A DNA stretch of 64,000 bases from Okamejei kenojei (Eukaryota), in assembly GCA_035221665.1 (NCBI GenBank), contig CM069143.1, positions 16,554,001 to 16,618,000 of the forward strand. The letters run 5' to 3'. Below, piece by piece: positions 9,584 through 64,000 of this stretch. A program made the position numbers and the translations under genes. Below the pieces are notes generated by a model, which saw only the letters and a list, made by a program, of their open reading frames with translations, was not told the origin of the DNA and did not search any database. Within the stretch, counting starts at the first letter, position 1. Each line of letters opens with the position of its first letter.

Positions 9584-10561
9584 ATCCAGTTATACTTACC
9601 AATTACTAACACCAATAATATATTTATAACAATTCAGTTCAGCCCAACATTGGGACAATTAATCTTCCTATAAGCAAAATGCCAGCATCTAAATTTCATC
9701 TAAATTTTGGCAGTGAAATAATTGATTTAATCACTGAGAAAATACAATCATCAACTTTACTTGGGATGCAGCTGTAATTAAGTTGTTTTTTGATTTGGCA
9801 AGGTCAGCAAAGTCAGGAAGCAACATCAATTTATTTGCTATCTTTCTTTAGCCATTCAAAAAAGTTGGAAGATACAGATGATTGAATACAAAGATTACGC
9901 ACATCAGTTGCAGTGAAGGTGTCAGGTCCCATCAACATTCCCGATATAGAGTAGAAGTCATTAGTTTACAACTAGGCTTCTTCCCACCACGCTGTTCTGC
10001 ACCACCAGTGTCTGTGTGACAGAAAACCAAGTGACAAAAGTAACAAATCGTAAGATTAAACGAGAACCTACCAGTTTGATGTTTGATCTTTATTTTATGA
10101 GGAGTTACGATGAGGGATTATGTGAAGAACCCCATACAGCCGCACATGCGGCAATCTTCAAAGCAACTGAGTGAAATCACAGGTAATAGTGACTGAAGTA
10201 TAATAGTAAGATAAAAGAAGACTAGAGCTACCAGATGATATTTATGAGGGTTGGGAGCGGAGGGCACGTAATCCCTCATCGTAACTCCTCATAAAATAAA
10301 GACCAAACGTCGAACTGGTAAGTTCTCATTTAATCTTACTATTTTACTTCGGAGTCACATGAGTGACTACGTGAAGATTTCAAAGCTCTCTGATTTCATG
10401 CCGCAGACCCAAATCCGGCGTTCACACTGCATTGATTGAATCAAATCGTTAAATAATCAATAATGCATCAATCATAACATTGTTTAAATGAATTAATGGT
10501 TTATTTACAAAGAAAAACAATAGCAACCCCTCTATCTCAGGGGGAAACTATATAACAGAAC

Positions 10562-11479
10562 TCAAAACAGACTCAGCAAATACCCCAGCATTGCCATCGG
10601 CTTATGATTGAATTTCTGGAAGGTCAGCTCACTGAACCACCCTGCATCCATGAGGATATGGTATATAGGCACGTCCATCGCCCTGGCCACGGATGTTGAT
10701 GCCGCCCTGGTGGAATGAGATTTGAATTTATCAGTATTAATCCCAGCACTTCCCAGTACCTGCTTTAGCCACCTTGAAATTGTTTGCACCGACTCCTTAT
10801 AGTGTGGTTTTTTGTAGCTAATAAATAATGCAGACTCTGTTCCTCGTAGGACTCTGTTAGCCTCAATGTAATGAGACAAATATGACACTACACACAGGTG
10901 AGCATCTGTTGAGTATGCTGAAAAAAATCTTACATCCTGTCATGCCTATTCTATTCTGTTTGAGAAGATCATAAACATAAAAAGTAATGGCATCTGCCGA
11001 TACCTGCATTCTGTCTAGCCGTAGCTTCTGCAATGTCTGCACACGTTGGGCTGATACCAACGCCATAAGCATGACCACCTTCATGGTTAGTTTGGCTAGA
11101 GATAGGCTTGTAACAGGAGCCCACTGGCGAAGGAGCATAAGGACTTTGCTCACATTCCAAATACCGGAATACCTGGGTTTAGGAGGATTAGAATTAAAAA
11201 CTCCCTTCATAAATCTAGAGACTAACGGATGTGTCCTTACTGAATGCAACTCTGAACTCATTTGTAAAGAAGAAGAGCACTTCAGGCTGTATTAATCACA
11301 CTATAGCTTAATTTTTTATCTAAGTAAAGAGTGGACAAAAACTCCAGTATGTCTGGGATGCCTCCCACTTCGTTATCGAGGTGATGTACTGCTTCTGAGT
11401 ACTATACCTGCAGGCCGACGTGAGAACGTCCACGGTATGATCAGACAGTCCTCTCCCCCAGGTATGGCCTCCTTAAAAT
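10562..11479 (-). pseudogene. DIRS tyrosine recombinase pseudogene
   Basis: HPLVSRFMKGVFNSNPPKPRY, SAQRVQ, LFISYKKPH, HSTRAASTS and AGW..E.TFQKF, with frameshifts and deletions. Confidence 0.9.
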
Positions 11480-13369
11480 CTGCTAAAAGGATGTTGATCG
11501 CCAGTTAATGGGTTCACCAGTAGGTGTTTATGTTTGGGAATAATCATATGAGGCTGAATAGCCATCTGCAATACGAGAGGAAACCATGGCTGGGTAGGCC
11601 AATCTGGCACTACCAATACTCCTGAAGTGGAGTCCTGCTTGACTTTTTGCAGGCATCGACTGATGAGAGAGAATGGGGGAAATGCATATACAAACATTCC
11701 ACCCCAATGAAGCAAGAAGGCATCCACCGTTGCTATGCCAGGATCTGGTTCCCATGAAACACATCTGGGCAACTGATGGTAGTCTAGATGCAAACAAGTC
11801 AATATCTGGCATTCCATACTGAGCAACCACTTGATTAAATATGTCCTGATTTATCATCCATTCTATGTTATCATTGAATTGGCATGACCTAGTGTCTGCT
11901 ACTTAGTTGAATCTACCTAGTAAATATATTGCTGAAAGCCAGATGTTTTTGTCAATGCACCAGCCCCAGATATGATTATCCAGTCTGCCACAAGACTGTG
12001 ACTTGACTCCTCCCATGTGGTTGACATATGCCACTGCTGTGGTGTTGTCAATCGTAACCTGCACATGCAAGTGACTCCTGGCAGAGCAATAAGCTTTAAG
12101 TCCATACCAGATTCCGAAAAGCTCTAAATAATTGATCCCTCTTAATTGCAGAAGGGATGTCTCATCAGTATCCCATCCGCCTCCACAACTGGAAGACATA
12201 TCCGTAGCACCCCAACCCAGCGCACTAACATCCGTATGTAAGATTATGGAAGGTGGTTCAACCAAAACTTCCCTTGGACTTTTTGAGACATTTGTGATCC
12301 ACCATTGAATTTCTGAAATTGCCTCTGCTGACAATTGCATAAGCCTATAAAAATGACCCACATGTGTCCTCAGTGCCTGTTCTTTTGCTCGTTGTAAGTG
12401 TTGATAATGCAGAGGTCCAAACTGCACAGCTGGAAAAGCATCCACCAATTTACCAACTGGCTACCTGTCTAATTGAAGGTCATTGCACACTAAGGAGGTT
12501 GACGCAATCCTCAATTAACTGCTGCTTTTTGTCCCTGGGCAAAGTCACTAACATGTGATCCAAATTAATGGTAAAGCCCAAGTAATCAATAATATTATCT
12601 GGTGATAATTTGGATTTATCTGGATGATTGATGAACCCCAAATGTTCAAAAGCGAGTTTAACAATTGAAACAGATGACTCAGCTGCAGTCCGAGTCTTCC
12701 CGATAATTAAAATATCATCCAAATAAGCCATTACAACATGCCCCTGAGCTCGGAGTAGTCCTAGAACATTTCAACATTTTGGTAAATAATCTAGGAGCTG
12801 AATTTAACCCATTAGGCAATGCTTTGAATTGCGACAACTGACACATCCAGGTAAATTTCAAATACCTCCTATCATCACAATGAACAGACACTGAGTAATA
12901 TGCATCCTTCAAATCTATGCTGGCCATATAACACCCATTTGTAAACCAGTTGTTTAGCAGTAGAAAAAGTTTCCATTTTGAAATGCCTATAGCGTACAAA
13001 GGAGTTCAAGCTCGTCGGGTCCAGAATGATTCTACATTCCCCAGTTTTTTTAGACCTAGGAAAAATACTTGACACAAACTGATGGTTTTGATGAACTGAC
13101 TTCTCAATAGCCCCTTTTTTGTGTAATTTGTTAAGTTCTGCTTGTATGTGCATATTCTCTTCTTGTGAAAATATAAGTTTCCGACTTGGAACATACTGAC
13201 TGGGTGGACACAAAGTAGGGTAAAATTCAATTTCAACCCCCTCTATACTGTTCAGTATAAATGAACCTGATGTTATCTCCTGCCATTGTTTGAGAAACAA
13301 GTGTAATCTGCCCCCAATTTGAACATCTATTTCACTTGATTTATATTCCTTAGGAGCAAAATCTCTCAC
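11473..13369 (-). pseudogene. DIRS RT / RNase H / N6-adenine methyltransferase-like pseudogene
   Basis: IGGRL, SIDLKDAYY, ALPNGL.SAPRLFTK and YLDD; RNase H TDVSALGWG, INYLEL and DNTTAVAYVN; MT DLFASR and DAF...YAFPPF. Confidence 0.9.
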
Positions 13370-14535
13370 CTGCACATGTCCTGACTGCTCTTGTTGCCCT
13401 CGGCCCTTTGTAAGGAAATTAATCCTTCCCCTCATGCCTGTGGCAGGCTGCCAGCTCCGAGTTTGTGAAACTGAGTGGCTCGCCCCTTCACCGGCATCTG
13501 TGATGGTATCCCGCCGATAAGGAAAAACCCTTTTTCCTGGTTTGCCACTTGGCTTGATGAGGCCCATCGTTCTTGCGTCCTCATGTAGTTCTTTAACTCG
13601 CTTAGCGAGATCCTTGCCAAACAAAAGGTTAGGCGGTTGTACGCTGCTCGGCTTACATAGTGATGCCAGTTTTGGGTTTATGACTGGGCGTATAGCACTC
13701 CTCCTTATATTATTAATTTCAAAGACTGCACCACACAGGAGTCCAAGCGCATCCTGGTGGGATTCTGTCATGTGCCCCTTGTCTACAATAGTTGCAAATG
13801 CAGTAAGCCCTGCTGAGAGTAATTTAAGTGCTTTTTGAAACTTCAACTCCTGCGCCCTTGCTGAAACCCCAATTGTGTCCGTATAAGATGGTTCACCATC
13901 GGCACTTTTAACAACCCACAATTAATTGGGGCTTCATATTTTTTGGCCGCCTCGGCCATAGCCAATTCTTGAAGCTGATGTGAGAGCATATATTGAATGG
14001 CTGCTGCCAATTCTTCCCCTAATGGCTCCCCTGCTTCTCTGGGGACTGCAAATTTCTCCGCTATATTTGGAATGATTTCTAGTTCCACTCCCTTGTGGCT
14101 CTCCCCAGCCACTGATTCAGCGCCAGTGTATTGCTGAGCAGGTATACCCTCCTTCCTCAAAAGATGGGTAATCTTGCAGCCCTATTGCAGGCGCTGCTGG
14201 CACAGGCTCTCGAATAGGCTGGCGTGGGCACCACTTCTCCTGTCCTTCTGTAATAAGATCTCGACCTGGGAGAGCCGTGAGCAAACAGTCTCTCCTTGTG
14301 AAGGTAAAACCTCCAGGCCCGACTCTGGGTCAACGGGCCTATTCAATTTCAAAGTTGCCATGCGCCCTACCGGCGTGGCTACGCTGCTCACAGGCAGCGG
14401 GTCCGGTGTCGCTAGCTCCATTGCTGGCGACAGACTTGGTGACCTAGGCGGGCATCCGCTAACCACACTCTCGCGGTCCTCCAACTTTTTTCCCCCGGAT
14501 CGCCTCGCCGACACATTTTTTACTTTCTGTATCAT
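13370..14535 (-). pseudogene. DIRS gag-like ORF1 pseudogene
   Basis: YEAPINC..LKVPMVN and DALGLLC.A.FEINNIRRSAIRP.INPKLASLC are homologous to copy 2 ORF 18873-19460. Confidence 0.8.
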
Positions 14536-14739
14536 TTTAACGGTATGAACGTTACCGCTAACGCAGAAAGTGAGCACAAGAAAAAGTTTGAAACTTACCT
14601 TGCGTTTTAAACTTACCACTTGGAGGAGCTCTGTTGCTCCAACCGGCCGACTGAACCAATGCGTCTGACGTAATGATGCACGTGCGGCTGGACAGGGTTC
14701 TTCACGTAGTCACTCACGTGACTCCGAAGTAAAATGATG

Positions 14740-15665
14740 AATGTACTGGCAACCTAAATATGAAATTATTACTTGCTGCAGCTTCACAGGCCCATTAAAG
14801 TAATAACTCAATAAATAAACGTAAAATAATCAATAAGACAATACATTAATCATCAGTAATATGAGGTAACCAGACCATAATAGTGTAAAAATGAAATACT
14901 TAATATAGCCAAAACAAAATGCATAGTAGGTCATAGTCACTGCAACGGGGTTGTGATTAATGTTATGCCATGTTCAAGATCTTGATGGTTGCTGAGAAGA
15001 AGCTGTTCTTGAACCTGGAGGTCATGGTTTTCAGGTGCCCATACCTTCTTCCTGATGTTAGTAATAAGATGAGAGCATGGCCAGGATGATGTGGATCTTT
15101 AATGGTATTAGCTGCATTTTTGAGGCAGTGGCGCCTGTAGATCTCTTTCATGGTGGGACATCAGTACATGTCATAGACTGGGCAATCTTTACAAATTTTT
15201 GAAGCCTCCTTTATTCCTTGGTGTTTGACTTACTGAACCGGGCCATGACACAACCAGTGTGCTCTCTGCTATACACTTGTAGAAATTCCAAGGAGTATTC
15301 AGAAACATTCCAAATCTCTGTAACCTTCTAAGGAAGTAGATATATTCATGAACTTTATTTGTGATTGCTTCAATGACGTTGGCCCAAGGCAGATCTTTGG
15401 GGATATGCACACCCAGGAACTTTAAATTGTTGACTCTCTCCACCGCCATCCCATTAAAGAAAACAGGTTAATGGATTTTTAGCTGTCACTTCCTAAAGCC
15501 AATAGTCAATTCCTTGGTCTTGCTAACATTGAGAGCAAGATTGCTGTTCTGGCACCATTCAATCAGATTATCAATCTCCCTCCTGTACTCCGACTCATCA
15601 TTACTGATACTTGTTCAACAACGTTGATATCTTCAACAAATTTAAAGATGGTGCTGTAGCTGTTT
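14740..15665 (-). mobile_element. Rex1-clade LINE fragment
   Basis: ORFs 15189-15449 (VERVNNLKFLGVHI, YFLRRL) and 14963-15151 (IKDPHHPGH..L.SGRRY..FKNSFF). Confidence 0.85.
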
Positions 15666-16961: not shown

Positions 16962-17691
16962 ATTCACATTATGGAAATATGTGTTTATTAAGAACAATCT
17001 GTATAATCTCTAATGCAACAGCTTACTAAAAATGCAATTAAATCCTGGAAATTTGGGCTATGTCTGTATTTAAGGCTGCAACATGAGAAAAAATCTTAAT
17101 GAAGATCTTGTTAATCATACGTGACATTAACATCTTAGAGAATAAGTTAAGACCCATTAGGATGCATACATTCAAATAATTTCATGAGTTCGAAAACTAT
17201 CAATGGTTAAACAAATGAATTGGCTTATTGCAGTTTGATATACAATGATACAAAATAGTAGAAATGGATTGAAGCAATATTATAAAATATGTACAGTAAT
17301 GTAATACTAGAAAGCACAATTCTGCAATAATTTTAATTTACAATGCTTTTTTGTGAGATTGCATTATAGTTTAGTTTAGTTTAAGTTTATTGTCACATGT
17401 AGCGAAGTAGAGTGAAAGCAGTGAGTAAGGTGGACAGTGAACCATGAGGTACATCTGTTTAAGAGCTCATCATTTTACTTCGGAGTCACGTGAGTGACTT
17501 CGTGAAGACCCCGCCAGCACGCATTCGTGACATATCGTCGCTCGCATTTGCTACCGACAAGCTGGGGGGGGGGGGGGGGGGGGGAGTGCGCTCTCTCCAC
17601 AGCTCCTTCAAAAGGACCAGGAAAAGGTAAGTTCACTAACCTTAAGCTGGTTTGCATGTAGGAGTCCTTGTGTTTCTACCTGCAGGAAACG

Positions 17692-19460
17692 ATGGAAGGA
17701 AAAGGGAAAGGTAAGCTTTCCAAGCGCTGCAGGACTTCTGGTCAGCGGGACACTTCTCCGGAGCTATTCACCACACCGGCGGCGTCCGGGAAATGGATGG
17801 GGGAAAAGGTGCGGAAGTTGGGCGCACCTGTTACACCAGCGTCCATCTCGTCTCCAAAGGCAGCCGCACTGGTGCAGGGTATGTGCAACCCTGATTTCAT
17901 GCCTCCATCCCCCGGGAGGGGGGGGAGCAAGAAGGTACGTGGAGTGCCTCGCACACCAGTGACAGCAACACCTCGTCTGGGGGGAAGACCGCGCCGACGT
18001 CGAGCCCCGCAGCCGAAGCAGGTCTCGAGAAGCCGCCGGGGTGTCCTGACTTAGAGCGGGCCGGTAGAGCTGCTGCGGAGTCGAGCAGCCCTGCCGGAAT
18101 AGGAGCTGCCAGCTTCACACCGGGGTATGCTCGAGTGCAAACCGATGGCAGCCACATGCGGTCGGTTAGTTTGCCTGGGGCCGCTGCTGACCATGCACCC
18201 CTACCGAGACATAATGTCAGGAATAGGGGTAAGCCTGCATGGACTCCGGGGAGCCAGGCACTGGGGGCCGGCACCGACTTATATCCACTGCCTTCCCACC
18301 AGGCACGGGGACCGCCACAGTCCGCTCGTGGGCGGACTAGCGGAGAGTCTGTGTGGGAGTCGTACGGGCCTGCAGGAGCGGGTGTCGACGACCTCCTGCC
18401 ACCAGATCGCACTCACCATTTCCTGGGGGTAAGATCTGCTGGTAGAAGCCCCAGCGACATTGCAGAGCCTGGGGAAGTCGGCTTGTTGGCTACATGCAGT
18501 AGCGACGGTCGCATGGACCGGTTGGTGGATGGTGGAGCGCCTAGTTCAACAAGAACAGGACAGGAAAGAACGGTGGTCCCGGGCCTCGCTACCCACAGCC
18601 GTCAGCCACCAAGCATCTCGCCTTCCTCTGCTGGGAGTGCCAGAAGTCTGCAGGAGGTCAAGTTCGATGCCGAGCCAGACATGCCGGAGGTCGATACTCC
18701 AGAGGCAGATGAGGACCTACTGGATGTTGTGGGCAAATTTGCTACTGCGCCTCCTTCGGGGGGCTGCACTACATCCAACACTGGCAGGGACGATTAACTT
18801 TCTCACCTCACACCAGCTACAGGAACGACATCATGGATAAATTCAAGCCACCGGAGAATTGCTTTAATCTGAATGTCCCCATGGTCAATGCTCAAATTTG
18901 GAGGAATGAGTAATACCGCCAGAGTTCAGGACGCACGCCTCCAGAAAATCCTGAAACTCCTCTCAATGGGAATCACTGCTTACGCCAGGACCCTCGATGG
19001 GGAGAACATGTCCAGAGAGCAGCAGGATGCTCTGGCTTTACTCTGCAATGCCCAGTTTGAGATTAATTGTCTCCGAAAAAGCTCTATCCGGCCCACGCTC
19101 AACCCTAAATTTGCAGGGTTGTGCCGTACCTCCACCACTCCACCACCACATCAGCTGTTCAGGGAAGACCTGCCGAAAAAGGTAAAAGAGATGGACGAGG
19201 AGGCCAAAGCCGTCAGCCTCATGAAGCCGCCTTCATCAAGGGCCTACGCCTATCAGCAACCGCCGTATACCGCTTGGAAACCTCGCCCACCAGACAGGAC
19301 ACCTCGGGCAAATCCACCGCCAGTTCCCCAACAGCAGATCCCTTTTTTAGGGCAGGGCCCTCGGAGGCCCACCTGGAAAATGCGGCCTCCACCTCGTCAA
19401 GCCACACGATGTCCCCCCAAACCACCATACACCAGGACCTGCCGTTGCCCATGGAGGTAA
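17692..19460 (+). pseudogene. DIRS gag-like ORF1 pseudogene
   Basis: Broken ORFs 17668-18054, 18135-18797 and 18873-19460. QDARLQKILKLL and DALALLCNAQFEINCLRK are shared with copies 1 and 4. Confidence 0.8.
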
Positions 19461-21359
19461 GGGGGTCTGGTTCTACTAAGCAAGTATCAATGGTACCCTC
19501 ACAAGTAGGGGGACGGTTGCGGGCTTTCAGTGGTGCATGGGATAAAATAACTACCGACTCTTTTATTTTACAAAGTGTTCGGGGTTATGTCATAGAGTTT
19601 ATTAACGGTCAACGTCCCCCTACTCAGCATGTACCTAATCGCACATTTGCGCTCTCTCACAAAGAGATCGAGCAAGGACATGCAGCAATATTATGGCTGG
19701 CAGCCAAAGGGGTGATAGGGAAGACGACACATGAACCCATTGAGTTCGTGTCCAACATCTTTATTAAAACCAAAAAAGATGGAGGTTGTCGGATCATCAT
19801 TGAACTAACTCAGTTGAACACTTTCGTACAATATACCCATTTCAAAATGGAAACCTTTGAAACTGCTAAGCAGCTACTGTATCCGGGGTACTTTATGGCT
19901 TGCATCGATCTCAAAGATGCATACTATACAGTCCCCATCATAGAATCCCATAGGAAATTCTTGAAATTTGTCTGGTAGGGACAATTATGGCAATATGAAG
20001 CTTTACCCCATGGCTTAACCACAGCCCCTAGACTGTTTATCAAAATAGTCAAACCGATACTGGCTATCCTACGGCAACAGCATTATATCGTCATGGCTTA
20101 CCTAAACGATATCCTTATAGTGGGACCAACCCTCCACTTGGCAGAGCTGGCAGTCACAGCGACCAAATATTTATTCGAGACATTAGGGTTTGTTACCCAT
20201 CCAGACAAATCCAAATTCACCCCATCTCAAATCATGGAGTATCTGGGCTTTACTATCGACACCACCTGAATGATAGTCACTATCCCACCCAGCAAAGCAT
20301 CTGATATAAAAGATGCATGTACCAGCCTTGCTTGCGCCAGGGTGCCGACCATTCGACATACTGCCAAGGTGATTGGGAAACTGGTAGCAACATTTCCAGC
20401 TGCGCAATTCGGCCCACTGCACTATCAAAACTTACAACGAGCAAAGATTTCAGCATTAAAAGCCAATGCTGGGCACTTTGACAGGCCAATACGGCTACCA
20501 ATTAAGGCTAATCTGAGCTACAGTGGTGGGTTGACAATATTAGTGCGTGTTACAAACCCATCATTACTAGCAACCCGTCAGTCGTGTTACAAACTGACGC
20601 AAGTGCTCAAGGTTGGTGTGCAACTGACACCACGTCTAGTTGTGGTGGCAGATGGGATCCTCCCGAGTCTACCCTCCTTCAGACACACGGGATAAATTAT
20701 TTGGAGATGCTTGGGGCTTTCCATGGTCTGAGGGCATACATGTCCGTCTTCAAATAGATAATACCACGATGGTGGCTTACATAAATCATATGGGTGGTAT
20801 CAGGTCGTTATCTTGTGACGAATTGGCGAACACAATTTGGCCTTGGTGTATTGAAAGAAATATTTGGCTCACAGCGACCTATCTACCAGGGAAGCTCAAC
20901 ACAGTGGCAGACACCAGGTCACATGTGTTCAATGATAACATCGAGTGGATGTTGGACCCCCAAATATTTGCTCAAATTATAGCTAACTTTGATACACCAG
21001 ATATCGACCTCTTTGCGTCCAGGTTGAACCATCAGATACCAACGTAACTGTCTTGGGAACCAGACCCTGGGGCAGTGGCTATGGATGCTTTTTCACTCCA
21101 TTGGGGGAAATGGTTCTACTACGCATTTCCCCCATTCTGCCTCATCAGTCGGGTATTGCAGAAAATACAACTGGATTCTGCTTCAGGCATATTGATCATT
21201 CCCGATTGGCCTACACAGCCATGGTACCCGGTGGTTCTCCAAATAATAATACGTCCGTGGGTTAAAATTGCTAAACACCCCACATTACTCACTGACCCCA
21301 TTACGGGGGACAGTCACCCGTGCCATGGTCACTTACACCTTTTAGCTTGCAGGTTCTGA
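19451..21359 (+). pseudogene. DIRS RT / RNase H / methyltransferase-like pseudogene
   Basis: VGGRL, KKDGGCRII, CIDLKDAYY, YLND (YLDD mutated), QTDAS.QGW, DNTTMVAYINHMGG, DLFASRLN and YAFPPF, with several stops and frameshifts. Confidence 0.9.
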
Positions 21360-22315
21360 AGAAGCCGCTCATGGAGGCCAGCATATCGGCCAGAGCTATG
21401 GACCTCATTTCAGCATCGTGCAGAGTATCAACCCGGCAGCAGTACCTCACCCAGATCAGGAAGTGGGAGGCCTACTGCTCCCGAACACATACCACCTACA
21501 ACTCTGGCACGATCCCTGACGTCCTGGAATTCCTAGCGGGCCTTCATTACGATGAGGGTCTCAGCTACAGTGCCATCAACTGCGCCAGGAGTGCGCTCTC
21601 CTCATACCTGAATATAGGTGTGGGCACGCACCATCTGGTGTCCAAATTCATGAGGGGAGTGTTCAACACCAACCCTCCACGACCCCGATACAACATCACA
21701 TGGGATGTGGGCGTAGTACTTACACTACTGAGAAGCTGGTCCCCTTTGACAGGACTACCTCTTGACAAGCTCACCCTTAAAGTGGTGATGCTGATGGCAC
21801 TCACTTCAGCTCAACGAGTCCAGGCCTTACAGAAGCTTCGGCTGGACCCGATGGTCTCGACTCCTGCAAAGGTGACTTTCTTTGTCAAGGACCTGCTGAA
21901 GTAACATAGGCCTGGGACTTCTGGGCTGCAGTTGGAGTTCTGGGCATACCCCACTGATGCCACCCTCTGCATAGCCACCCATCACCGCTATTACATCCGA
22001 ACAACTCGAACCATCCGGAAGATGGAGCAGGGGCTCCTCATCAGCCACAAACAACCACATCACCGGGTGACTGTGCAGACTATCGCAAGGTGGCTCAGGG
22101 TGGTGTTGGGTGCAGCTGGTATCGATACTAACATTTTTAACTCTCATTCTACCAGGGCTGCATCCACATCAGCGGCAAGGGCCATGGAGGTGCCCATGGA
22201 CCACATCCTCACCACTGCGGGCTGGGCCAGTGAATCGACTTTCCAGAGCTTTTATAATAAATCGGTGGTCGCCCCCGCTACATTTGCGGATGCCGTGCTG
22301 AGAGCCGCTCCGTGA
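21353..22315 (+). pseudogene. DIRS tyrosine recombinase, one in-frame stop (21902-21904)
   Basis: ORFs 21320-21904 and 21932-22315 are in the same frame. R (AQRVQ), HSTR, AGW and FY catalytic motifs are present. Confidence 0.92.
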
Positions 22316-23280
22316 ATGTTTACTCCCCGAGTATGGGTTTTTCTTTGTTATTCTTTGTTTAATAAATCTGCATTATTTGTCAGCCTCTTCAGTCTGGAAT
22401 GCATTAACAACCTTCCTCCATCAGTATTGCGGCAGTGTGATAGCATGGACGTTGTCCAGGGCGTGTAATCACAGAAGCTTTGAAGTCTTCACGTAGTCAC
22501 TCATGTGACTCCGAAGTAAAATAGTAAGATTAAACGAGAACTTACCAAGTTTGAAGGTTGATCTTTATTTTATGAGGAGTTGCGATGAGGGATTTCGTGC
22601 CCTCCGCTCCTATCCCTCTATCATAAGGTCAACTGGTATGTTCTACTTTGTTAATCTTACTATCTACTTCCATGATATGTTCGGTGATTCCACACCGCTG
22701 CTTTAAAGAATGTCGCGCATGCGTGCTGGCGGGGTCCTCACGAAATCCCTCATCGCAACTCCTCATAAAATAAAGATCAACCTTCAAACTTGGTAAGTTC
22801 TCGTTTATTATTACTATTTAACTCTGAACATTTGGCTATTTTGCCATTGAAGGGCAGAGATCAATCTAATAGGCCTTTCAACTATTCTCATTGGGGAAAA
22901 TTGGAAAGCAAGTTAATTCAAAAACATTTATGCACCTTTGATGCAGTATCCACCAGCTGGATATGGAAGATAGGAAATGGGTTATTGTAAATTAGCTATT
23001 TTAAGTAATATTGAAAACAACTTTAAAATAATATAAGTAGCAGTGCAACTCATACAATATCTGAGTTTTCAAAATTCAGCACATTTAAATGGAATCTGTG
23101 CAACTCAACAATGTTATTTTTTGGTTAGGTGAAGGAAAGCATTGATTACTACGTCAAAGACAATCAAAATGTAATGGACAACCATGCAGAATAATGTAAT
23201 ATCAGACTTCTGTGTGCAAATAATATTGGCTTCACTGCTCAGGCCTCCAATAGTTTCTCTGCTTAGCTTTTTAGAGAATA

Positions 23281-41284: not shown

Positions 41285-44200
41285 GAGTAGTAAGATTAAA
41301 CGAGAACTTACCAGTTTGAAGTTTGATCTTTATTTTATGAGGAGTCGAGTTGAGGGACTACGTGAATAGAAGCCCGTACAGCCGTTGGTGCGTCAATCTT
41401 CAAAGCAGCGGAATGAATTCACAGCTAACAATGACTGAAGTATAACGGTAAGATGATAAAACTAGAACTACCAGATGAGATCTATGAGGGTGGGAGCGGA
41501 GGGCACGTAGTCCCTCAACTCGACTCCTCATAAAATAAAGATCAAACTTCAAACTGGTAAGTTCTCGTTTAATCTTACTATTTTACTTCGGAGTCACGTG
41601 AGTGACTACGTGAAGACTTCAAAGCACTGTGAATTCACGCCGCAGACTCAAATCCGACGTTCACACTGCCTGGATTGACTCAAAAGTCGTTAACAATCAA
41701 TCATGCATCAGTAATACATTTGTTAAATGAAATAACAGTTTATTTACAAACAAATCATAACAAACCCCTCTAACTCAGGGGAAAAATGTAACAGTACTGA
41801 CACCAATCAGCAAACACCCCGAGCCTTGAAATCGGCTTGTGATAAAACCTCTGAAAATTTAGCTCACTGGACCATCCTGCGGCCGCGAGGACCTTGAAAT
41901 CGTTGCACCGACACCTTACTGTGTGGTTTTTTGTGACTAATAAACAAAGCCAACTCTGTTCCTCTCAGAGGTTTAGTAATCTCAATGTAACGAGATAAAT
42001 GTGAGACTATACAGAAGCGATCATCTGCGGGGTATGCTGAAACACAATCTTACATCCTGTCATGCCTCTTTTATTATGTTTAAGCAAATCATAGGCATAA
42101 AATATAATGGCATCAGCCGACACATGCATTCTATCTAGCCGTAGCTTTTGCAATGTTTGTACACGTTGGGCTGAAACCAACACCATAAGCATGACCACCT
42201 TCACAGTTAATTTGGCTATAGATAGGCTTGTAACCGGAGCCCACTGGCGAAGAACCATAAGAACCTCACTCACATTCCAAATCCCGGCATACCTGGGTTT
42301 AGGAGGATTAGAATTGAAAACTCCCTTCATGAATCGTGAACTAACGGATGTGTCCCTACTGTATGCAATTCTGCATTCATAGGTAAATAAGAAGACAGAG
42401 CACTTCTGGCTGAATTAATCGCACTGTAACTTAATTTTTTGGTCAAAATAAAGAGTTGACAAACTCCAATACATCCGTGATCCCTGCAGTGTGATATACA
42501 ATATCCTGCTGTAGGCAGAATTGCTCCCACTTCCTTATCTAGTTGATATATTGCTGCTGTGTACTATCCCTGCAGGCTGACGTGAGAACATCCACCGTCC
42601 GATGAGACAGTCCTCTCCCCAGGTATGGCCTCCTTAAAATCTGCAAATTAACAGATCAATACGATCCTACAAAGGATGTTGATCCCCAGTGACTGGATTT
42701 ACCAGTAGATTTTCTATTCGTGGGCATAAGCATGTAAGGCTCCCTAGCCATTTGTAATACAACGGGAAACCATGCTCGTGTAGGCCAATCTGGCACTACC
42801 AATACCCCTGAAGCAGAGTCCTCCTTGATCTTTTGCAAACATCTGCTGATGAGACAGAATGAAGGAAATACATACACAAACATTCCTCCCCCAATGCAGC
42901 TAAAATGCATCCACTGCTACTGCCCCAGAATCTGGTTACCATGAAACATATCTAGGTAACTGATGATTTAATCGAGATGCAAACAAGTCAATATCTGGCA
43001 ATGCATACTGATCAATCATTTGGTTAAATACATCCTGATTTAACATCCATTCAATGTTGTCATTAAACTGACGTGACCTCTTCCTGGCAAATAAAGTGCT
43101 GAAAGCCAGATATTTTGGTCAATACACCAGCTCCAAATCTGGTTAGCCAGTCTATCACAAGACTGTGACTTAACTCCACCCATGTGGTTTACATATGCCA
43201 CTGCTGTGGTGTTGTCAATCTGACCTGCACATGCAGATCCCTCCTTGTAGAACAATAAGCTTTGAGCCCATACCAGGTGCCCAACAACTCTAAATAATTA
43301 ATCCCTCTTAATTGAGGAAGTGATGTCTCATCCACATTCCATCTGCCTCCACAACTAGAAGACATATCTGTTGCACCCCAACCCAGTGCACTTACATCAG
43401 TCTGTAATCAGTGACGGTGATTCCACCAAACCTTCCTTAAATTTTTGGAAACATGTACTATCCACCATTGTATGTCAGCAATCGCCCCAGCTGACAACTG
43501 CATAGGCCTATCAAAAATGGCCCCTTTGTATTCTCAGTGCCTGTTCCTTTGATGGTTGTAATTGTTGATAATGCAGAGGACCATACTGCACAGCTGGAAA
43601 GGCTGCAACAACTTCCCAATAAAACTGGCTACTTGTCTAATCGAAGGCCGTTGTTCTCCAATGAGATTAACACAGTCCTCAATTAACTGATTCAATTTAT
43701 TAACACGAGATCCAACGAGATTAACACAATTAACTGATTCAATTTATCCCTGGGCAAAGTTACCAACATGTGATTGGAATTAATGGTAAATCCCAGATAA
43801 TCAATAATTTGGACTGGTGATAATTTAGATTTATCTGGGTGAATAACAAATCCCATTTGTTCAAAAGTGATTTTAACAACTGAAACTGATGATTGGGTTT
43901 CAGCATGAGTCTTTCCAACAATCAGAATATCATCTAAATAGGCCATTACCACATGCCCCTGAGCTCTAAGTAATGCTAACACAGGTTTTACCAATTTAGT
44001 AAATAACCTAGGAGCTGAAGTTAATCCATTCGGCAATGTCCTGAATTGCCACAGCTCAGTCATCCAAATAAATTTCAAATATCTTCTATCATCACCATGA
44101 ATAGACACTGCGTAATACGCATTCTTTAAATCAATGGTTCCCCGTGGTAAAGGTCTCCATTTTGAAATGCCTATAACAAACAAATTTGTTCGATAAATCC

Positions 44201-44315
44201 AGAATAATTGTACATCCCCCAGTCTTTTTAGATCTGGGAAATATACTTGACAGACACACCAACGGCTGTACGGGCTTCTATTCACGTAGTCACTCACGTG
44301 ACTCCGAAGTAAAAT
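41285..44315 (-). mobile_element. DIRS1-type copy 3, gag-less deletion derivative with intact termini and ICR
   Basis: 5' end at 44315. The ITR is joined directly to the middle of the RT 5' region at about 44250. RT YLDD, RH, MT and YR remnants; ICR at 41504-41615. Confidence 0.93.
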
Positions 44316-45291
44316 ATTACTGTCTTGTCACATGTGATGCATTCATTCATTCATTCATTCTGAAAAGGTTAGCCTAGAAGTACATCAATGTGAAAGTTGA
44401 AATCTGATTCTCTCTCTGTAGATGTTACCTGACCTGCTGAGTATCTACAGTGTTTTCTGTTTCATTCTTTTAATTTCAGGGAATATGTTCCTGACACTCA
44501 GAAAAATCAATGTAAGATGAAATAATCTTAGCTTCTGGGATGGTCATATTGATTCTTCAAACATTAGAGCTGTCCGATGAATCAGTGGATATGAAGATTT
44601 TTCATATGTATGCAGAATTCATTCAGAGTATTCTTTTGATCCCAAATGAAGTCTTCTTATGAATACAAATGATACAAAGGTCAACATTTCATGCTGAGAG
44701 TGAAATATATAATTTTAGATATAATGTTTTATTAAATTCTACCAAGTTTAGCTGCAGTAGCTAAATTCCAATTACTGTTAAAATTAGTGGCCTTCTTTAT
44801 ATCTGTGAGCTGGAGAATGTCTGAAACTGTTAGCTGGCACCATTAATCATAACAGCAAAACTATTCCCACATGCAAAGGAATAGTTGAGAGAAGATTACT
44901 GGAGCTTAATCTTCACATCCGAGGAGAAAAAAAATAGCTATGAGAGATTCTTTGAAGAACATCAAAGAACATTAAATATTGAAAGAACAATAGATATTGT
45001 AGATAGGAGACCTGAAATTACTTTGAAGGACATTGGAAATAGAGTTGTATAAATGTTGAGGCAGAAGTTGGCTCTTCGGCATTCTACATCTGTACTAACC
45101 TTTTTCTAACCTACTCTAATCCCATTTGCCTGCATTAGGACTATGTCCTTCATTGCCTTGCCTATTCATTTTTCTGTTGAAATGCCATTTAAATGTAGTA
45201 ATTGCACCTGATAAGTAGGACTACAGGACATCAATAAAAGCAGTGAAAAGAAAAATTCAGAACAGACTTAAAAAAAAAAAAAAAGTCTTAA

Positions 45292-58055: not shown

Positions 58056-59600
58056 AAGTAATGGAATACTCTCCACTTGGCTGGGTGAAACTCACCACCA
58101 TTCAAGACAAAGCAGCCTCCTTTACAACAGGTTAACTTCCCAATTCACCTCTCCAAACATTTATTCTCACACCATCGGTGCAGAATGACCACAGTACAAA
58201 CCTTCTGCTGTTGCTCCCCAAAGTTATTCTATGCCAAGAAGGTCAAGGACATCAGGCATATGGGAAGAGCATTACCATCATGTACTTCTCCAAGTTGTGT
58301 GCCATCCTGACTTGGAAATATATTACTGGTCATGATCATCTCTGGGTCTGAAATCTAGAAATCCCAATCCAATGCTACCGTGAGAGTGGCTTCATTAGAA
58401 GGAACCCAGCAGTTTGAGAAGGAGGCGTGCTATTATCTTTTCAAGGGTATTTAGGGGTGAGTAATAAATGCTGTCCATGCCTGGATCCCAAAAAATCAAT
58501 AGCTAAATAAGATATCCTAATTCTTCCTCTTCTAACTTATACTGTGGTTATGAAATGTGAGGGTTAAACTACTTTTGGGGCCCTCTGATTGGAATCAATG
58601 CTGATAAAAAGATACAATACTGCCTTTTCTTTCTGAAAACAACTGATTATCTCTTTACATCAGAAGTTAACTTTGAATTTTTTTTCAAATGTTTTTGGGT
58701 CATTCAAGGAGAAAGTATCCTAATAACAATTACCTGCACATGTTAATACATTGATCAATCATGAAAAATAATGTCTGCAACACTTACCCTGACAATAGTT
58801 TTCAATATAATTCAAAACTGTGAAATAAATAACCACTAACCTGCACGATCAATATGTTTTGGGCACAGCAATCAATAATCCTGACATTCTTAATTAAAGT
58901 ATTTTGCAAGTCACTGAGGACAGTTATACAGATTGTAGAGCTGCTCACTGCTAGTTTATAAAAGATACACAACAGTAAGCAATATTACACTTTGCAATTT
59001 AATGCAAGAATCAGCATTCCTTCCCTATGAATGGTTTTAGCGTACAGTATTCAATAAACAAGACTAAGGCTACTTTAAAAGCATATATTGCTAGTTGTCA
59101 GCTGATGAAATGCCAGAGACATGCAAAAAACTGTTATGAACTCACTAATGGGTGCAATCATTTTATGTATTTGAATTAATATTCTATTGTAGAATCTTAA
59201 TTTTACTTCGGAGTCACGTGAGTGACTACGTGAAGAATCCTCGCCAGGCGCATGCGCGTCATTACGTCCGCGCATGCCGCACTGAACGGGCTGGAGGGCA
59301 CAGCTCCACCAGCGGGTAAGTAGGAACTTCTAAGATAAGTGTTTTAAAAACTTTACTTAGAAGTATTTCCACTCCGTAAAGCTGGCTCGAGCAGTCAGTA
59401 GGAGTGGGGACTTGGAGCTGTCACTTCTGAAGATTTGTCTTAGCAACGCCGGTTCCGATGCCGTGTGCCGTTTTACCGGCAGCAGTTAAAATAGCACGCT
59501 AATTTTCCCCACTAGCTCCATTGACAAATGGCAGGCCAACTGGAATTTGCTTCAGAATGAGCCTGGTCCATCTGTTTATTTCCAAGGGTGCTAGCAGACT

Positions 59601-62378
59601 GAGGCTGCACCGCCATTCAATATGATCATGGCTGATCATCCAACTCAGTACCCTGTACCTGCCTTCTCTCCATACCCCCTGATCCCTTCAGCCACAAGGG
59701 CCACATCCAACTCCCTCTTAAATATGGCCAACGAACTGGCCTCAACTACCTTCTGTGGCAGAGAATTCCACAGATTCACCATTCTCTGAGTGAAAAACGA
59801 TTTTCTCATCTCGGTCCTAAATGACTTCCCCCTTATCCTTAAACTGTGACCCCTTGTCCTGGACTTCCCCGACATCGGGAACAATCTTACTGCATCTAGC
59901 CTGTCCAACCCCTTAAGAATTTTGTAAGTCTCTATGAGATCACCCCTCAATCTTCTAAATTCCAGCGAGTACAAGCCGAGTCTATCCAGTCTTTCTTCAT
60001 ATGGAAGTCGTGCCATCCCAGGAATCAGTCTTGCAAACCTTCTCTGTACTCCCTCTATGGCAAGAATGTCTTTCCTCAGATTAGGAGACCAAAACTGTAC
60101 ACAATACTCCAGGTGTGGCCTCACCAAGACCCCCCTATACAACTGCAGTAGAACCTCCCTGCTCTTGTACTCAAATCCTTTTGCTATGAATGCTAACATA
60201 CCATTTGCTTTCTTCACAGCCTGCTGCACCTGCATGCCTACTTTCAATGACTGGTGTACCATGACACCCAGGTCTCGTTGCATCTCCCCTTTTCCTAATC
60301 GGTCACCATTCAAATAATAGTCTACTTTCCTGTTTTTGCCACCAAAGTGGATAACCTCACATTTATCCACATTATACTGCATCTGCCATGCATTTGCCCA
60401 CTCACCCAGTCTATCCAAGTCATCTTGCAGCCTCCTAGCATCCTCCTCATAGCTAAGACTGCCCCCCAGCTTCGTGTAATCCGCAAACTTTGAGATGTTG
60501 CATTTAATTCCCTCGTCCAAATCATTAATGTATATTGTAAATAGCTGGGGACCCAGCACTGAGCCTTGCGGCACCCCACCAGTCACTGCCTGCCATCCTG
60601 AAAAGGACCCGTTCATTCGTACTCTTTGCTTCCTGTCTGCCAGCCAGTTCTCTATCCACATCAATACTGAACCACCAATACCGTGTGCTTTAAGTTTGTA
60701 TACCAATCTCTTGTGTGGGACTTTGTTGAAAGCCTTCTGAAAGTCCAGATATAACACATTCACTGCTTCTCCCTTATCCACTCTACTAGTTACATCCTCA
60801 AAAAATTCAATAAGATTCGTCAGAAATGATTTACCTTTCGTAAATCCATTCTGACTTTGTCCAATGATTTCACCTCTTTCCAAATGCGCTGCTATCCTAA
60901 CTTTAATAACTGACTCTAGCAGTTTCCCCACTACCGATGTTAGACTAACTGGTCTGTAATTCCCTGCTTTCTCTCTCCCTCCCTTTTTAAAATGTGGGGT
61001 TGCATTAGCTACCCTCCAATCCTCAGGAACTACTCCAGAATCTAAAGAGTTTTGAAAAAATATCACTAAGGCATCTGCTATTTCTGGGGCTACTTCCTTA
61101 AGTACCCTGGGATGCAGCCTATCTGGTCCTGGGGATTTATCGGCCTTTAATCCATTCAATTTACCTAACACCACTTTCCGGCTAACCTGGATTTCACTCA
61201 GTTCCTCCATCTCATTTGACCCGCAATCCCCTGCTATTTCCGGCAAATTATTTATGTCTTCCTTAGTGAAGACAGAACCAAAGTAGGTATTCAATTGGTC
61301 TGCCATGTCCTTTTCCCCCGTTTCTGACTGCAAGGGACCTACATTTGTTTTAACTAACCTTTTTCGCTTCACATATCGATAAAAAATGTTTGCAGTCAGT
61401 TTTTATGTTTCCTGCCAGTTTTCTTTCATACTCCATTTTCCCTTTCCTAATTAAGCCCTTTGTCCTCCTCTGTTGGTCTCTGAATTTCTCCCAGTCCCCT
61501 GGTAGGCTGCTTTTTCTGGCTAATTTGTACGCTTCATCTTTTGCTTTGACACTATCCCTGATTTTCCTTGTTATCCACGGATGCGCTACCTTCCCTGATT
61601 TATTCTTTTGCCATACTGGGATGAACAATTGTTGTAGTTCATCCATGCAGTCTTTAAATGACTTCCATTGCATAACCACCGTCAACCCTTCAAGAATCAA
61701 TTGCCAGTCCATCTTGGCCAATTCACGTCTCATACCCTCAAAGTTACCTTTCTTTAAGTTCAGGACCCGTGTTTCTGAATTAACAATGTCACTCTCCATC
61801 CTAATGGAGAACTCAACCATATTATGCTCACTCTTGCCCAACGGGCCACGTGCAACAAGGCTGCTAACTAACCCTTCCTCATTACTCAATACCCAGTCTA
61901 GAATAGCCTGCTCTCTCGTTGGTTCCTCTACATGTTGGTTTAGAAAACTATCCCGCATACATTCCAAGAAATCCTCTTCCTCAGCACCCCTGCCAATTTG
62001 ATTCACCCAATCTATATGTAGATTGAAGTCACCCATTATAACGGTTTTACCTTCGTTGCACGCATTTCTCATTTCCTGTTTGATGCCATCCCCAACTCCA
62101 CTACTACTGTTAGGTGGCCTGTACACAACACCCACTAGTGTTTTCTGCCCCTTAGTATTTCGCAGCTCCACCCATATCGATTCCACATCCTCCAAGCTAA
62201 TGTCATTCCTTTCTATTGCGTTAATCTCCTCTCTAACCATCAACGCTACCCCACCTCCCTTTCCTCTCTGTCTATCCCTCCTGAATATTGAATATCCCTG
62301 GATGTTCAGCTCCCAGCCTTGGTCACCCTGGAGCCATGTCTCCGTGATCCCAACTATATCATAATTATTAATAGCTAG
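59601..62378 (-). mobile_element. Young CR1-clade (HER1-like) LINE, truncated at both ends
   Basis: Contains nearly all of ORF2. The 3' end stops at ...ggcggtgcagcctc. Confidence 0.95.
59645..62378 (-). pseudogene. CR1 ORF2 (AP endonuclease + reverse transcriptase), one frameshift near 61380
   Basis: EN motifs IVGITETWL, GGGVAL, YRPP, MGDFN, LD.VL and SEH. RT motifs YRPVSLTS, YLDFQKAF, GVPQGSVLGP and FADY (FADD mutated). Confidence 0.95.
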
Positions 62379-64000
62379 TAATAAGGATCCAAGGGCCAGC
62401 AATGTCCAAGATGGCCATATCAAGACCAACATATGGAGGGTCCATATATTGGGGTTCCTTCCAGCGCCTTGTTTAGGACTGGAAGATGCCTCCCTACTAT
62501 ATGATTTGGGAGAAGCGGGCAGAATGCAGCTGACCCTGATGCTGGTGTCCCTGCTTAAATGCAAACACCAGCGCACACAAGAGCCACGCTCCGGGTGTCT
62601 CGGAAAAGACACTGAGTTGCTATTCCAGAGGGGACTGGTGAGTCAATGGAACAATCTCTTGCCAGCGGTATCAATTATGTAGTACCTCACCAGCTCCAGC
62701 AAGGTATGATGAAAGTGACTGCAAACAAATATGAGACACCTGTTTAATGTGCATTACTGAAAATGCCTATGGTGACCCAGGTTCTGGGCACCCATGAGTC
62801 CTTCTTTGACGGGACAGGAGGTTCGATGTTAACCTCCTGTTGGGTATTTTATGCAATGCATTTTTCAGGAAATTGCATCAGGGAATATCGTCATCAGGCC
62901 AACACTAAACCAAAAATTTGCTGCTCTATGTAAGGCGACTAATGTACAAACGCCTGAAATATTGTTTGGAATGGACCTTGTCGTGAAAATTTGTGAAATT
63001 CATGATGAGGCCAAAGCAATTGGCTTAATGTAGTCAAGCATTTCGAGGCCACCTATTCGCAACCCTGGGTTAATACTGAAGGTCAGATCCAGGTGCTGGG
63101 CTCAGCAGGGGCAGGCCAGTGGGGCAACGAGGGTACCCACCGAGACAGACCGGCTACAGTCCCAATATGAGCAGAGAACAGCTTTACAACTGTAGAGGTA
63201 CAGGGACTTTTCTTAACGATAAAGCTCTGGTGGCCAATCTGCTATTGGAGGTTGATTACAACTGTTTTCTAATGAACGGTGCTGTATAATGTATGACATG
63301 TTTATACTAAATACTGTCTCACGTCTCCCATTGAGTTTATCTCAGGGATAGATCCACCTCAACAGCACAAGCCTAATAAAATGTGGGTGTTTTCTGCTCA
63401 AGAGCTGAACAGATAGATAATGGTGTCTAATATTTCCCCAGATCTCAAAAAGATGGGTGTTGTAGAGTAATTCTCGTCCTCAATCACTTAAATTAATTTC
63501 TGCTAAACACCTACTATCACAGGGCTGTTATTGGTTTGCAAGATGTGTATTATTCACAGCCAATTCATGCTCATTATCGCAGGTACTTGAAATTTAATTG
63601 GATGGCACAGCTGTGGCAATACAAAGCATTGACTCCTGGATTAAGTTCAGCACCCAGGCTATTTATTAATTTGTTAAAACCTGTGCTGGTGCTATTCAGC
63701 CCATCATCACATTGTAATTGCTTATTTAGCTGATATCTTAATTATCAGCAACACTAATGAGTCAGCTGAAGAATCGCTGCTTGAGTCATTAGGGGTTGCT
63801 CCATCCAATGAAGTCCAAGTTACAGCCAACCCAAAATATTGAGTATTTGGGGTTTCTTATTAATTCCATTGCTATAACAGTAACATTACCAACAGCCAAG
63901 GTTGTCGATGATGATGATGTCTGTACTTGTCTCCCACAAAATGTTAAACCCTCCATCCGATAAGACGCTACGGTTATTAGTAAATGGGGAGCAGGTTCTT

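Follow-up and report, generated by a model that had tools for sequence, protein, structure and literature searches.

Likely expression of the tyrosine recombinase from spliced RNA in DIRS1-like retrotransposons of Okamejei kenojei

In a decayed DIRS1-like retrotransposon of Okamejei kenojei and in its relatives, the pol region (RT-RH-MT) lies between a conserved splice donor and a conserved splice acceptor that are in phase with each other, and there are genomic copies that lack exactly the stretch from GT to AG. Removal of pol is quite probably how the mRNA for the tyrosine recombinase (YR) is made, with YR predicted to be reached from gag. Because conserved sites flank pol, and because sister copies lack precisely that stretch, the integration enzyme is likely to be expressed from spliced RNA, and probably as a fusion to Gag. 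A first-pass annotation of this DNA had suggested that pol is intron-like and that its removal puts YR in frame, which is upheld here; it had also proposed a middle exon and a general Met-Glu start, which are not.

The element copies and their predicted splice sites

The sequence analysed (the window) is the 64,000 nt of assembly GCA_035221665.1, contig CM069143.1, positions 16,554,001-16,618,000 of the forward strand. It holds four element copies, all of which are decayed DIRS1-like retrotransposons.

10038..14746, minus strand: copy 1; gag and pol in the same frame; GT of the donor at 13369 and acceptor preceding 11479
17472..22823, plus strand: copy 2; DIRS1-like element, full-length and decayed; divergence from the nearest relatives about 4-5% across the YR start
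41288..44319, minus strand: copy 3; belongs to a young non-autonomous family and is internally deleted; the donor is lost, the acceptor precedes 42640
59193..64000, plus strand: copy 4; continues beyond the end of the window; GT of a weak donor at 63198

The family of copy 3 has 39 other best matches at 98-99%. Copy 4 carries a LINE insertion on the minus strand at about 59620-62450, and its acceptor falls past the end of the window (L090:6058). The features of copy 2, all on the plus strand, are as follows.

17499..17533, plus: left short inverted terminal repeat, pairing with 22710-22744 (3 mismatches in 35)
17627..17632, plus: leader donor-consensus GTAAGT; site in 82/92 copies with a 5' end, and still present in joined copies
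17684..17685, plus: leader acceptor-like AG, 7 nt 5' of the gag ATG (17692) and 59 nt from the leader donor
17692..19460, plus: gag frame, with frameshifts and stops; homologous to open gag frames of relatives
19343..19349, plus: heptamer T-TTT-TTA, read in the gag frame; putative site of -1 frameshifting, and the 'middle acceptor' of the first-pass annotation
19343..19456, plus: transframe segment in the pol frame, 38 codons from heptamer to donor; across families open in 24/26, with an ATG in 6/26
19451..19453, plus: ATG two codons 5' of the donor, 2 nt past the gag stop in relatives; possible reinitiation start in some families only
19457..19462, plus: predicted phase-0 splice donor GTAAGG, from cross-family comparison
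19457..21352, plus: RT-RH-MT region, the predicted intron (1,896 nt), here with several stops and frameshifts
21147..21148, plus: another in-phase AG, preceded by a long run of pyrimidines; kept in 9/19 families of the genome
21351..21352, plus: predicted phase-0 splice acceptor at the YR start, from cross-family comparison
21353..22315, plus: tyrosine recombinase frame, with one internal stop
22485..22599, plus: ICR; its complement matches 17472-17509 at 94.7% and 22739-22823 at 96.5%

The leader AG at 17684-17685 and the second in-phase AG at 21147-21148 had been overlooked in the earlier annotation.

The inverted terminal repeats, and an ICR complementary to both ends, are as in DIRS1-like elements. 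Pfam recognised the RT of copy 2 (RVT_1, E 9e-11 at 19979-20266), and gave no match to RNase H or methyltransferase when run on fragments of the region after it. The motifs TDAS, DNTT, DLFASRLN and FPPF are present in pol, and may belong to RNase H and methyltransferase-like domains. The YR of copy 2 matched in two pieces, both below the curated cut-offs (Phage_int_SAM_4, E 1.4e-4; Phage_integrase, E 5.7e-4), and its relatives gave 96 matches above the Pfam cut-off in the genome. An AATAAA between YR and ICR was found in 9/21 genome and 11/40 metagenome representatives, and is thus not a general poly(A) signal. A genome search for LAP2alpha (PF11560) gave zero matches, and its control was likewise silent.

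The coordinates and sites quoted in the first-pass annotation were all found in the sequence (a slash marks the exon border). Copy 2 reads ATG GAG/GTAAGG, with GT at 19457, and cttttagcttgcAG/GTT at 21351-21352, both in phase 0. Copy 1 has CAG/GTGAGA (GT at 13369) and ttttagcAG/ATT (exon from 11479); copy 3 has taatttgcAG/ATT (exon from 42640), with the YR frame interrupted by a stop six codons upstream; and copy 4 has GAG/GTACAG at 63195.

Families were compared using representatives from the O. kenojei genome and from metagenome contigs. Donors were scored with a weight matrix, on the 46 of 70 representatives that have an RT start. Upstream of this start the highest-scoring donor falls in phase 0 in 38/46 representatives, compared with 169/503 windows inside pol, and it scores at least 6 bits in 19/46, compared with 3/503. 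Counts of donor codons are partly circular, because the matrix that picked the donors rewards AG/GTR. The residues flanking the donor are variable (E, Q or K, followed by V-R, V-S, V-G, V-Q, V-L or V-C). Among scorable copies of the copy-2 family the donor GT is kept in 15/16, and the acceptor AG is kept in 18/20 copies; the corresponding figures for a young family are 19/19 and 20/20. The GT and its consensus context are those of a U2 intron, with the exception of copy-4 type families, where the donor is weak (about 0 bits).

The in-phase acceptor is located either at the YR start or about 70 codons upstream. The YR frame upstream is closed in 28/31 representatives with a YAG at the YR start, compared with 6/37 without (68 representatives, including the privately damaged c1, L117, L050 and L192), and since the proximal-acceptor families form one clade (support 98), this correlation represents a single evolutionary change. 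With the four damaged representatives dropped, an in-phase YAG lies 64-76 codons upstream in 29/33 of the families whose YR start lacks one, compared with 0/10 metagenome families that have the YR-start YAG. The serine of FPPFS at this upstream acceptor is encoded by AGY in 25/30, against 277/1112 of serine codons in pol. A further AG occurs within 22 nt before the proximal AG in 5/29, against 24/33, and the strict branch-point motif YTRAY (12-45 nt upstream) is found in only 10/29, against 3/33. The pyrimidine share at the proximal site is 0.56-0.81 in closed-frame families. A YAG with a pyrimidine tract and an AG-free zone is what is found at a U2 acceptor. The pyrimidine tracts previously described for copies 1 and 2 are present but partly private, relatives reading CCTGTTGGCTTGCAG and GATCTGTTAATTTGCAG. 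In the 9/19 families of this genome that keep the competing in-phase AG upstream, its use would lead into a stop, and in copy 2 the YR frame is closed 3' of it.

The end of gag and the predicted frameshift

In elements of the copy-2 type, in which pol lies in the -1 frame, some ribosomes close to the end of gag would slip, at T-TTT-TTA or A-AAA-AAC, and would then read a short transframe peptide followed by RT-RH-MT on unspliced RNA or by YR on spliced RNA. In copy-1 type families, where gag and pol share a frame, no slip would be necessary. The predicted products are Gag, Gag-Pol (unspliced) and Gag-YR (spliced). The fusions would carry both enzymes into the Gag particle, and a weak-to-moderate donor would leave enough unspliced RNA to act as genome.

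The heptamer is locked to the gag frame (27 in this frame compared with 3 in other frames). It is present in 22/22 families whose pol lies in the -1 frame, and near the donor in 0/9 of those whose gag and pol share a frame. An X-XXY-YYZ heptamer in the upstream frame, with an open -1 frame downstream, is the arrangement of a frameshift site. The transframe from heptamer to donor is open in 24/26 families and has no in-frame ATG in 20/26 (L074 dropped). RNA folding after the heptamer is weak, with a mean z of -1.1 and a value of +0.2 for copy 2; z is below -1 in 13/27 and below -2 in 8/27, in folds calculated without pseudoknots.

Pol could be spliced out and yet YR and Pol of the copy-2 type be started at the ATG before the donor, by ribosomes reinitiating past the gag stop (stop-CC-ATG); the proteins would then be Met-Glu-YR and Met-Glu-Pol. 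The sequence TGA or TAA-CC-ATG-GAG/GT provides a good context and is kept in the copy-2 family, in its sister family at 85%, in the young family and in family J; and 13 fetched relatives of copy 2 with a shared deletion have lost the heptamer and retain the ATG, although this deleted subfamily may have been mobilised by proteins of other copies. Against this, the ATG two codons before the donor is in place in just 8/38 representatives, which also leaves the Met-Glu leader of the first-pass annotation unsupported as a general start. The predominance of transframes lacking an ATG argues in the same direction, as does their openness, for which reinitiation has no need. We therefore consider reinitiation unlikely as the main route, while noting that it could coexist with frameshifting.

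The first-pass annotation proposed instead three messages, in which the leader donor after 17626 is joined to a middle acceptor, ccctttttttAG at 19349-19350, skipping gag, and a 106-nt exon carrying the ATG is joined to RT or YR. The sequence, the 106 nt to the donor and the leader donor are as described, and the leader donor is strongly conserved (82/92). The AG in the leader is too near (29-59 nt, in 9 families examined) for an ordinary intron, and the leader donor may therefore need a distant partner; TTTTTTAG/G is compatible with an acceptor in 15/26 families. The same pair of leader sites was rejected as an ordinary intron on the grounds of this length and of its retention in joined copies. 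The acceptor role at 19350, and with it the middle exon and the junction 17626^19351, is not supported: the site is the frame-locked heptamer, it is A-AAA-AAC, T-TTT-TTG or a form without the AG in 11/26 families, and it is absent where gag and pol share a frame. Most families have no pol-frame ATG between the site and the donor, and genomic copies joined across pol retain gag and leader. Because the family of copy 1 has gag and pol in one frame, splicing there would give Gag-YR and not a YR with a short leader. Of 20 relatives of copy 2 that were fetched, 13 are without the stretch containing the proposed middle acceptor, the alignment showing that they share a deletion or are truncated there, and only 3 keep it. 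Three messages of this kind are very improbable.

Contigs of four runs (of guessed type, two of them probably DNA) were placed on copy 2, and neither 19456^21353 nor 17626^19351 was among the 15 of 32 joints listed; such contigs show presence only, and the result counts neither for nor against splicing.

Genomic copies from which pol is exactly removed

Family J is a sister family in the same genome, and 13 of its copies lack exactly the stretch homologous to 19457..21352, cut from GT to AG. The pattern for the joined copies gave 13 exact matches on 12 contigs, and a control pattern gave 0. Within family J, 9/43 copies are joined and 34/43 have the donor; 13/20 fetched unjoined copies are traceable to CAG/GTTCTGAAGAGG. 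The joined copies share diagnostic columns and form a single clade (76/86) in a tree from which 7/33 rows were left out as having too little aligned sequence, and they therefore probably derive from one founding event. They retain the whole of gag 5' of the heptamer. They also retain the leader donor-acceptor stretch, and thus offer no further intron loss by which an RNA origin could be confirmed.

Exact removal from GT to AG, as expected of a U2 intron, was found in genomic DNA of family J only. No joined copies were found in three other families covered by the same junction pattern. A broader pattern gave two matches, neither of them real (a small insertion, and a deletion inside MT), and a screen for missing pol of 154 loci with gag and YR gave 5 short loci, 0 of them joined at the splice sites.

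These copies bear on the suggestion that there is no splicing, that YR is made by a frameshift at the overlap with pol, that GT and AG reflect protein constraint, and that the joined copies arose by template switching at AGGT. In a passage quoted in PMC13003380, Poulter and Butler 2015 proposed such a frameshift for Ngaro; here too YR overlaps the end of pol in the -1 frame, there is a 4-nt microhomology (AGGT) at the join, and the Cys-Arg with which the MT frame ends is encoded by TGC-AG. However, 30,686 microhomology deletions of 0.5-3 kb would be possible, 205 of them in frame and near the same ends, and the exact join is only one in either set. The residue after Cys is variable in relatives (L, K, H, N, Y, P, R), and where it is Arg the codon is CGN in 7 families, 6 of them with the upstream AG. 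The overlap of pol and YR is mostly 6-24 codons in this genome, and inspection by eye of the families read showed no X-XXY-YYZ heptamer in it; the phase bias of the donor is left unexplained. We regard this explanation too as having very little probability. Least probable of all is that YR is translated independently, from an internal Met or from the TTG that precedes the AG, on mRNA transcribed from a promoter inside the element: a Met occurs at YR codon 16-20 in many families, and an ATG lies two codons upstream in several metagenome families, but the first Met in copy-1 and copy-3 types is codon 88, beyond the N-terminal SAM-like domain, and the donor and joined copies are unaccounted for.

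Comparison with other elements and significance

Splicing that removes pol may form part of a plan shared by animal DIRS1 elements, from cartilaginous fish to echinoderms and molluscs, and on the sequence comparisons we lean towards this wider reading. A gag-end frameshift or in-frame fusion would lead into a transframe ending at the donor, and splicing would select Gag-Pol or Gag-YR. The acceptor would have moved along the methyltransferase region, which would explain the varying overlap of pol and YR, and spliced RNA would at least once have founded a pol-less family.

Retroviruses and gypsy elements combine env splicing with gag-pol frameshifting: one RNA is both genome and message, balanced splicing exposes the 3' gene, and a -1 slip joins Gag to the enzymes. 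HIV-1 slips at U-UUU-UUA, where Gag reads FLG and the transframe FFR. The expression proposed here is similar in all three respects. It differs in that the DIRS1 donor comes after gag, so that splicing takes out pol alone and the spliced RNA still contains gag, and in that the 3' gene encodes the integration enzyme and not an envelope.

Predicted RefSeq models from Diadema antillarum (XP_071483612.1, XP_071502116.1) and Amphiura filiformis (XP_072032829.1, XP_072043497.1) fuse gag and an FFR transframe to YR at E/V or E/I, with no pol and at the same two points as in the skate elements, and a predicted model from Haliotis rubra (XP_046546323.1) joins at the upstream acceptor.

Passages describing the DIRS1-like superfamily (PMC3266345, PMC9210276) report, as found here, gag, RT/RH/MT and YR frames, inverted termini, an ICR, TTT ends and a short overlap of pol and YR; they describe the frames as overlapping. 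The words 'splice' and 'intron' are absent from the main texts of these two papers, which do not describe a pol-skipping splice with a frameshift signal at the gag end. Such a splice is undescribed in the literature searched, and an earlier mention is possible in Poulter and Butler 2015, Goodwin and Poulter 2001, Poulter and Goodwin 2005, Repbase reports or supplements. In Ngaro, as here, YR overlaps the end of pol in -1 and has no obvious start. The proposal quoted for Ngaro is a frameshift from pol into YR, whereas the evidence here favours a splice that removes pol and a frameshift at the end of gag. According to passages in Oberlin et al. (2017, PMC5580714), a conserved alternative splice sets protein ratios in plant Ty1/Copia, where splicing and early termination give Gag alone; the DIRS1 splice would exchange Pol for YR. 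A DIRS1 gag exonised in mammals has been inferred to have carried an acceptor (PMC4495291), which a pol-skipping splice would fit.

One published view of how a YR without a start is translated in DIRS-order elements, as given in PMC13003380, is a frameshift out of pol. If the splice and the gag-end frameshift proposed here are correct, exact junctions and protein ends are predicted, and the proteins to study would be Gag-YR and Gag-Pol. Differences between families in the length of the overlap would be explained, and annotated 'gag + integrase' gene models would be messages of the element. Control of splicing by the host could then turn abundant DIRS1 elements on or off.

Sites flanking pol

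Four decayed DIRS1-like elements lie in the window.

10038-14746, minus strand: copy 1, DIRS1-like, decayed
17472-22823, plus strand: copy 2, DIRS1-like, decayed
41288-44319, minus strand: copy 3, DIRS1-like, internally deleted, decayed
59193 to past the window end, plus strand: copy 4, DIRS1-like, split by a LINE, decayed

Copy 2 has short inverted termini, an internal complementary region (ICR) matching both ends, an RT match and recombinase matches. Copy 3 (41288-44319) belongs to a young family (98-99%) from which gag and the start of RT are missing, and is therefore likely to be mobilised in trans. The LINE in gag of copy 4 (about 59620-62450, minus strand) is a near-complete endonuclease-RT element with one frameshift region. 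The closest named homologues come from Leucoraja erinacea, which together with the type of LINE points to a cartilaginous fish as the probable host.

The first-pass annotation proposed that pol (RT-RH-MT) is an intron, with a donor just before RT (GT at 19457 in copy 2) and an acceptor at the start of the tyrosine recombinase, YR (AG at 21351-21352). All the sites it quoted sit where it placed them in the window sequence. For comparison, 120 genome stretches around DIRS copies and 80 metagenome loci, falling into 48 clusters, were fetched, and were represented by 22 genome and 48 metagenome sequences, the genome ones being chosen by eye and including near relatives. One young family includes copies whose stop-to-stop frames span 434 codons for gag, 690 for pol and 334 for YR; it keeps the donor in 19/19 scorable copies and the acceptor in 20/20, and the sites are therefore not products of decay.

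The donor was taken as the site scoring best on a weight matrix in the 141 nt upstream of the RT start, in the 46 representatives whose sequence includes that start; windows of the same length within pol (503) served as control. The best site is in pol phase in 38/46 representatives versus 169/503 control windows, and scores at least 6 bits in 19/46 versus 3/503. Several of the 8 out-of-phase cases reflect a frameshift in a single copy or a weak site of the kind seen in copy 4. Where gag and pol have separate frames, the donor is placed at the gag stop or a few codons past it. The codon preceding the donor is Glu, Gln or Lys in 35/38, ending in G in 34 of those 35 compared to 937/2661 in pol (a partly circular count), and an ATG lies two codons upstream in 8/38.

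On the acceptor side, a stop occurs within 30 codons upstream in 28/31 representatives with a YAG at the YR start, and in 6/37 of those without. In the tree of YR sequences the class with this proximal acceptor forms a single clade (support 98), so that its association with a closed frame counts as one change. In families lacking it, the YR frame is mostly open for about 70-90 codons further, and an in-phase YAG lies 64-76 codons upstream in 29/33, mostly within the pyrimidine-rich FPPFS codons. The Ser of FPPFS at this upstream acceptor is AGY in 25/30; in pol, AGY makes up a quarter of the Ser codons. An additional in-phase AG upstream, whose use would run into a stop, is found in 9/19 families of this genome, and a strict branch-point motif is present in only 10/29. 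The earlier caveat that TGCAG also encodes the Cys-Arg end of MT does not account for the AG, because the residue following the terminal Cys is variable among relatives.

A heptamer upstream of the donor

Strict heptamers (T-TTT-TTA, T-TTT-TTG, A-AAA-AAC) were scanned upstream of the donor in 38 representatives, giving 27 in the gag frame and 3 in other frames. A heptamer is present in 22/22 representatives with pol in the -1 frame; of the nine whose gag and pol share a frame, eight lack a heptamer and one has it 255 nt away; the frame relation was untyped in 7/38. From heptamer to donor the pol frame is open in 24/26, versus 3/26 for the same length upstream, and contains an ATG in 6/26. The site at 19349-19350 of copy 2, previously read as a middle acceptor, instead overlaps a heptamer locked to the gag frame, which offers no AG in 11/26. 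These features together are those expected of a -1 frameshift site, which is therefore predicted here. It resembles the HIV-1 frameshift site. RNA folding downstream of it is weak.

Most of the copy 2 relatives that were fetched (L011-L030) have lost the heptamer through a common deletion of some 90 nt (window 19307-19390) but retain the ATG and donor. Gag and pol form a single open frame in a large group of families (L031, L078, L112, L118, L123 and copy 1), of 1090 codons in L031, and free Gag therefore has no obvious source.

Joined copies lacking pol

The genome was searched for the exact junction that the predicted splice would create; 13 places on 12 contigs matched, and none matched a control pattern. 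All 13 belong to family J, the sister family of copy 2, and are 75-79% like copy 2 across YR and the 3' end. Among 43 exact matches to the donor-side sequence of family J, 9 run on into YR, and in the other 34 the donor follows. Twenty unjoined copies were fetched and 13 were traceable to CAG|GTTCTGAAGAGG, showing that the joined form is a precise GT-to-AG excision. The rival explanation is template switching at the AGGT common to both sides of the join, but 30,686 microhomology deletions of 0.5-3 kb would be possible, of which the observed join is one; counting just the in-frame ones close to these ends, it is one of 205.

The joined copies retain gag, the heptamer region, the leader and the 3' end with the ICR. 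They occupy one side of a branch (76/86) and have common diagnostic columns, and so probably descend from a single founding spliced RNA, which gave rise to a pol-less subfamily probably mobilised by proteins of other copies. Activity of DIRS-1 RT in trans has been reported (PMC7192593). In the other families tested, neither pattern searches nor a screen of loci with gag and YR yielded a joined copy. Joined copies L221-L233 have 5' ends near +95 of the parent, preceded by pieces of other DIRS leaders in tandem; in L227 the 5' piece is a different one, also present in unjoined L245 and L250.

Protein homologues were also screened (40 longer and 120 near-length among the matches listed, and 150 profile matches). 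Five RefSeq models among the matches listed have gag and YR without pol. Two from Diadema antillarum and two from Amphiura filiformis have an FFR transframe joined to YR, the joint reading E|V or E|I. The one from Haliotis rubra joins 72 codons upstream, at the second acceptor position; further models join at other points. The gag-to-transframe links in the five look like model artefacts, as would be expected if the true link were a frameshift.

Terminal signals and predicted expression

A donor consensus occurs 60-200 nt from the 5' end in 82/92 copies, often paired with an AG directly before the gag ATG at a spacing of 29-59 nt. At window 17627-17685 and in relatives L061, L067, L102 and L234, a perfect leader donor runs directly into CACTAAC, and a YAG then precedes the gag ATG. 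Because of the short spacing, and because the stretch is kept in joined copies, the pair is probably not an ordinary intron; the sites possibly serve to bind U1 and to accept donors from outside. All 3' ends seen carry a donor-like TG|GTAAGT some 30 nt from the terminus (window 22791-22800); if elements were circular or in head-to-tail tandem, it would precede the leader acceptor. The 5' terminus (window 17487-17530) has CACGTG and GCGCATGCGC-like motifs, which resemble E-box and NRF1 promoter sites. An AATAAA at window 22361 is 45 nt past the YR stop, ahead of the ICR; only 9/21 genome representatives have AATAAA between YR and ICR. Its use on spliced RNA would lose the ICR, which could account for the scarcity of joined copies.

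The terms 'splic' and 'intron' are absent from the main text of a DIRS1 overview (PMC3266345), a Xenopus study (PMC9210276) and a fungal study (PMC3783388), and in passages of PMC7192593 and PMC5633606 they refer to a reporter intron. An acceptor ahead of DIRS1 gag was inferred in PMC4495291, Ngaro YR is probably translated by frameshift (Poulter and Butler 2015, quoted in PMC13003380), and plant Copia has a conserved splice (PMC5580714). We found no description of a pol-removing splice of DIRS1 in the openly available main texts searched.

The sites, their phases, their conservation and the exact loss of pol in DNA are observed, and the splice-site arrangement of these DIRS1 elements is real and conserved. 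It is very likely that pol is spliced out of element RNA between the conserved in-phase donor and acceptor. A frameshift or in-frame fusion is the likely route into the pol/YR frame, and reinitiation at an ATG may be an added route in some families of this genome. The predicted products would be Gag-YR and Gag-Pol, and the mechanism as a whole is probable, a little less so than either step. The likeness to retroviruses, predicted here from DIRS1 sequence, lies in splicing plus frameshifting: DIRS1 elements would combine the two, with a genomic fossil of the putative spliced form.
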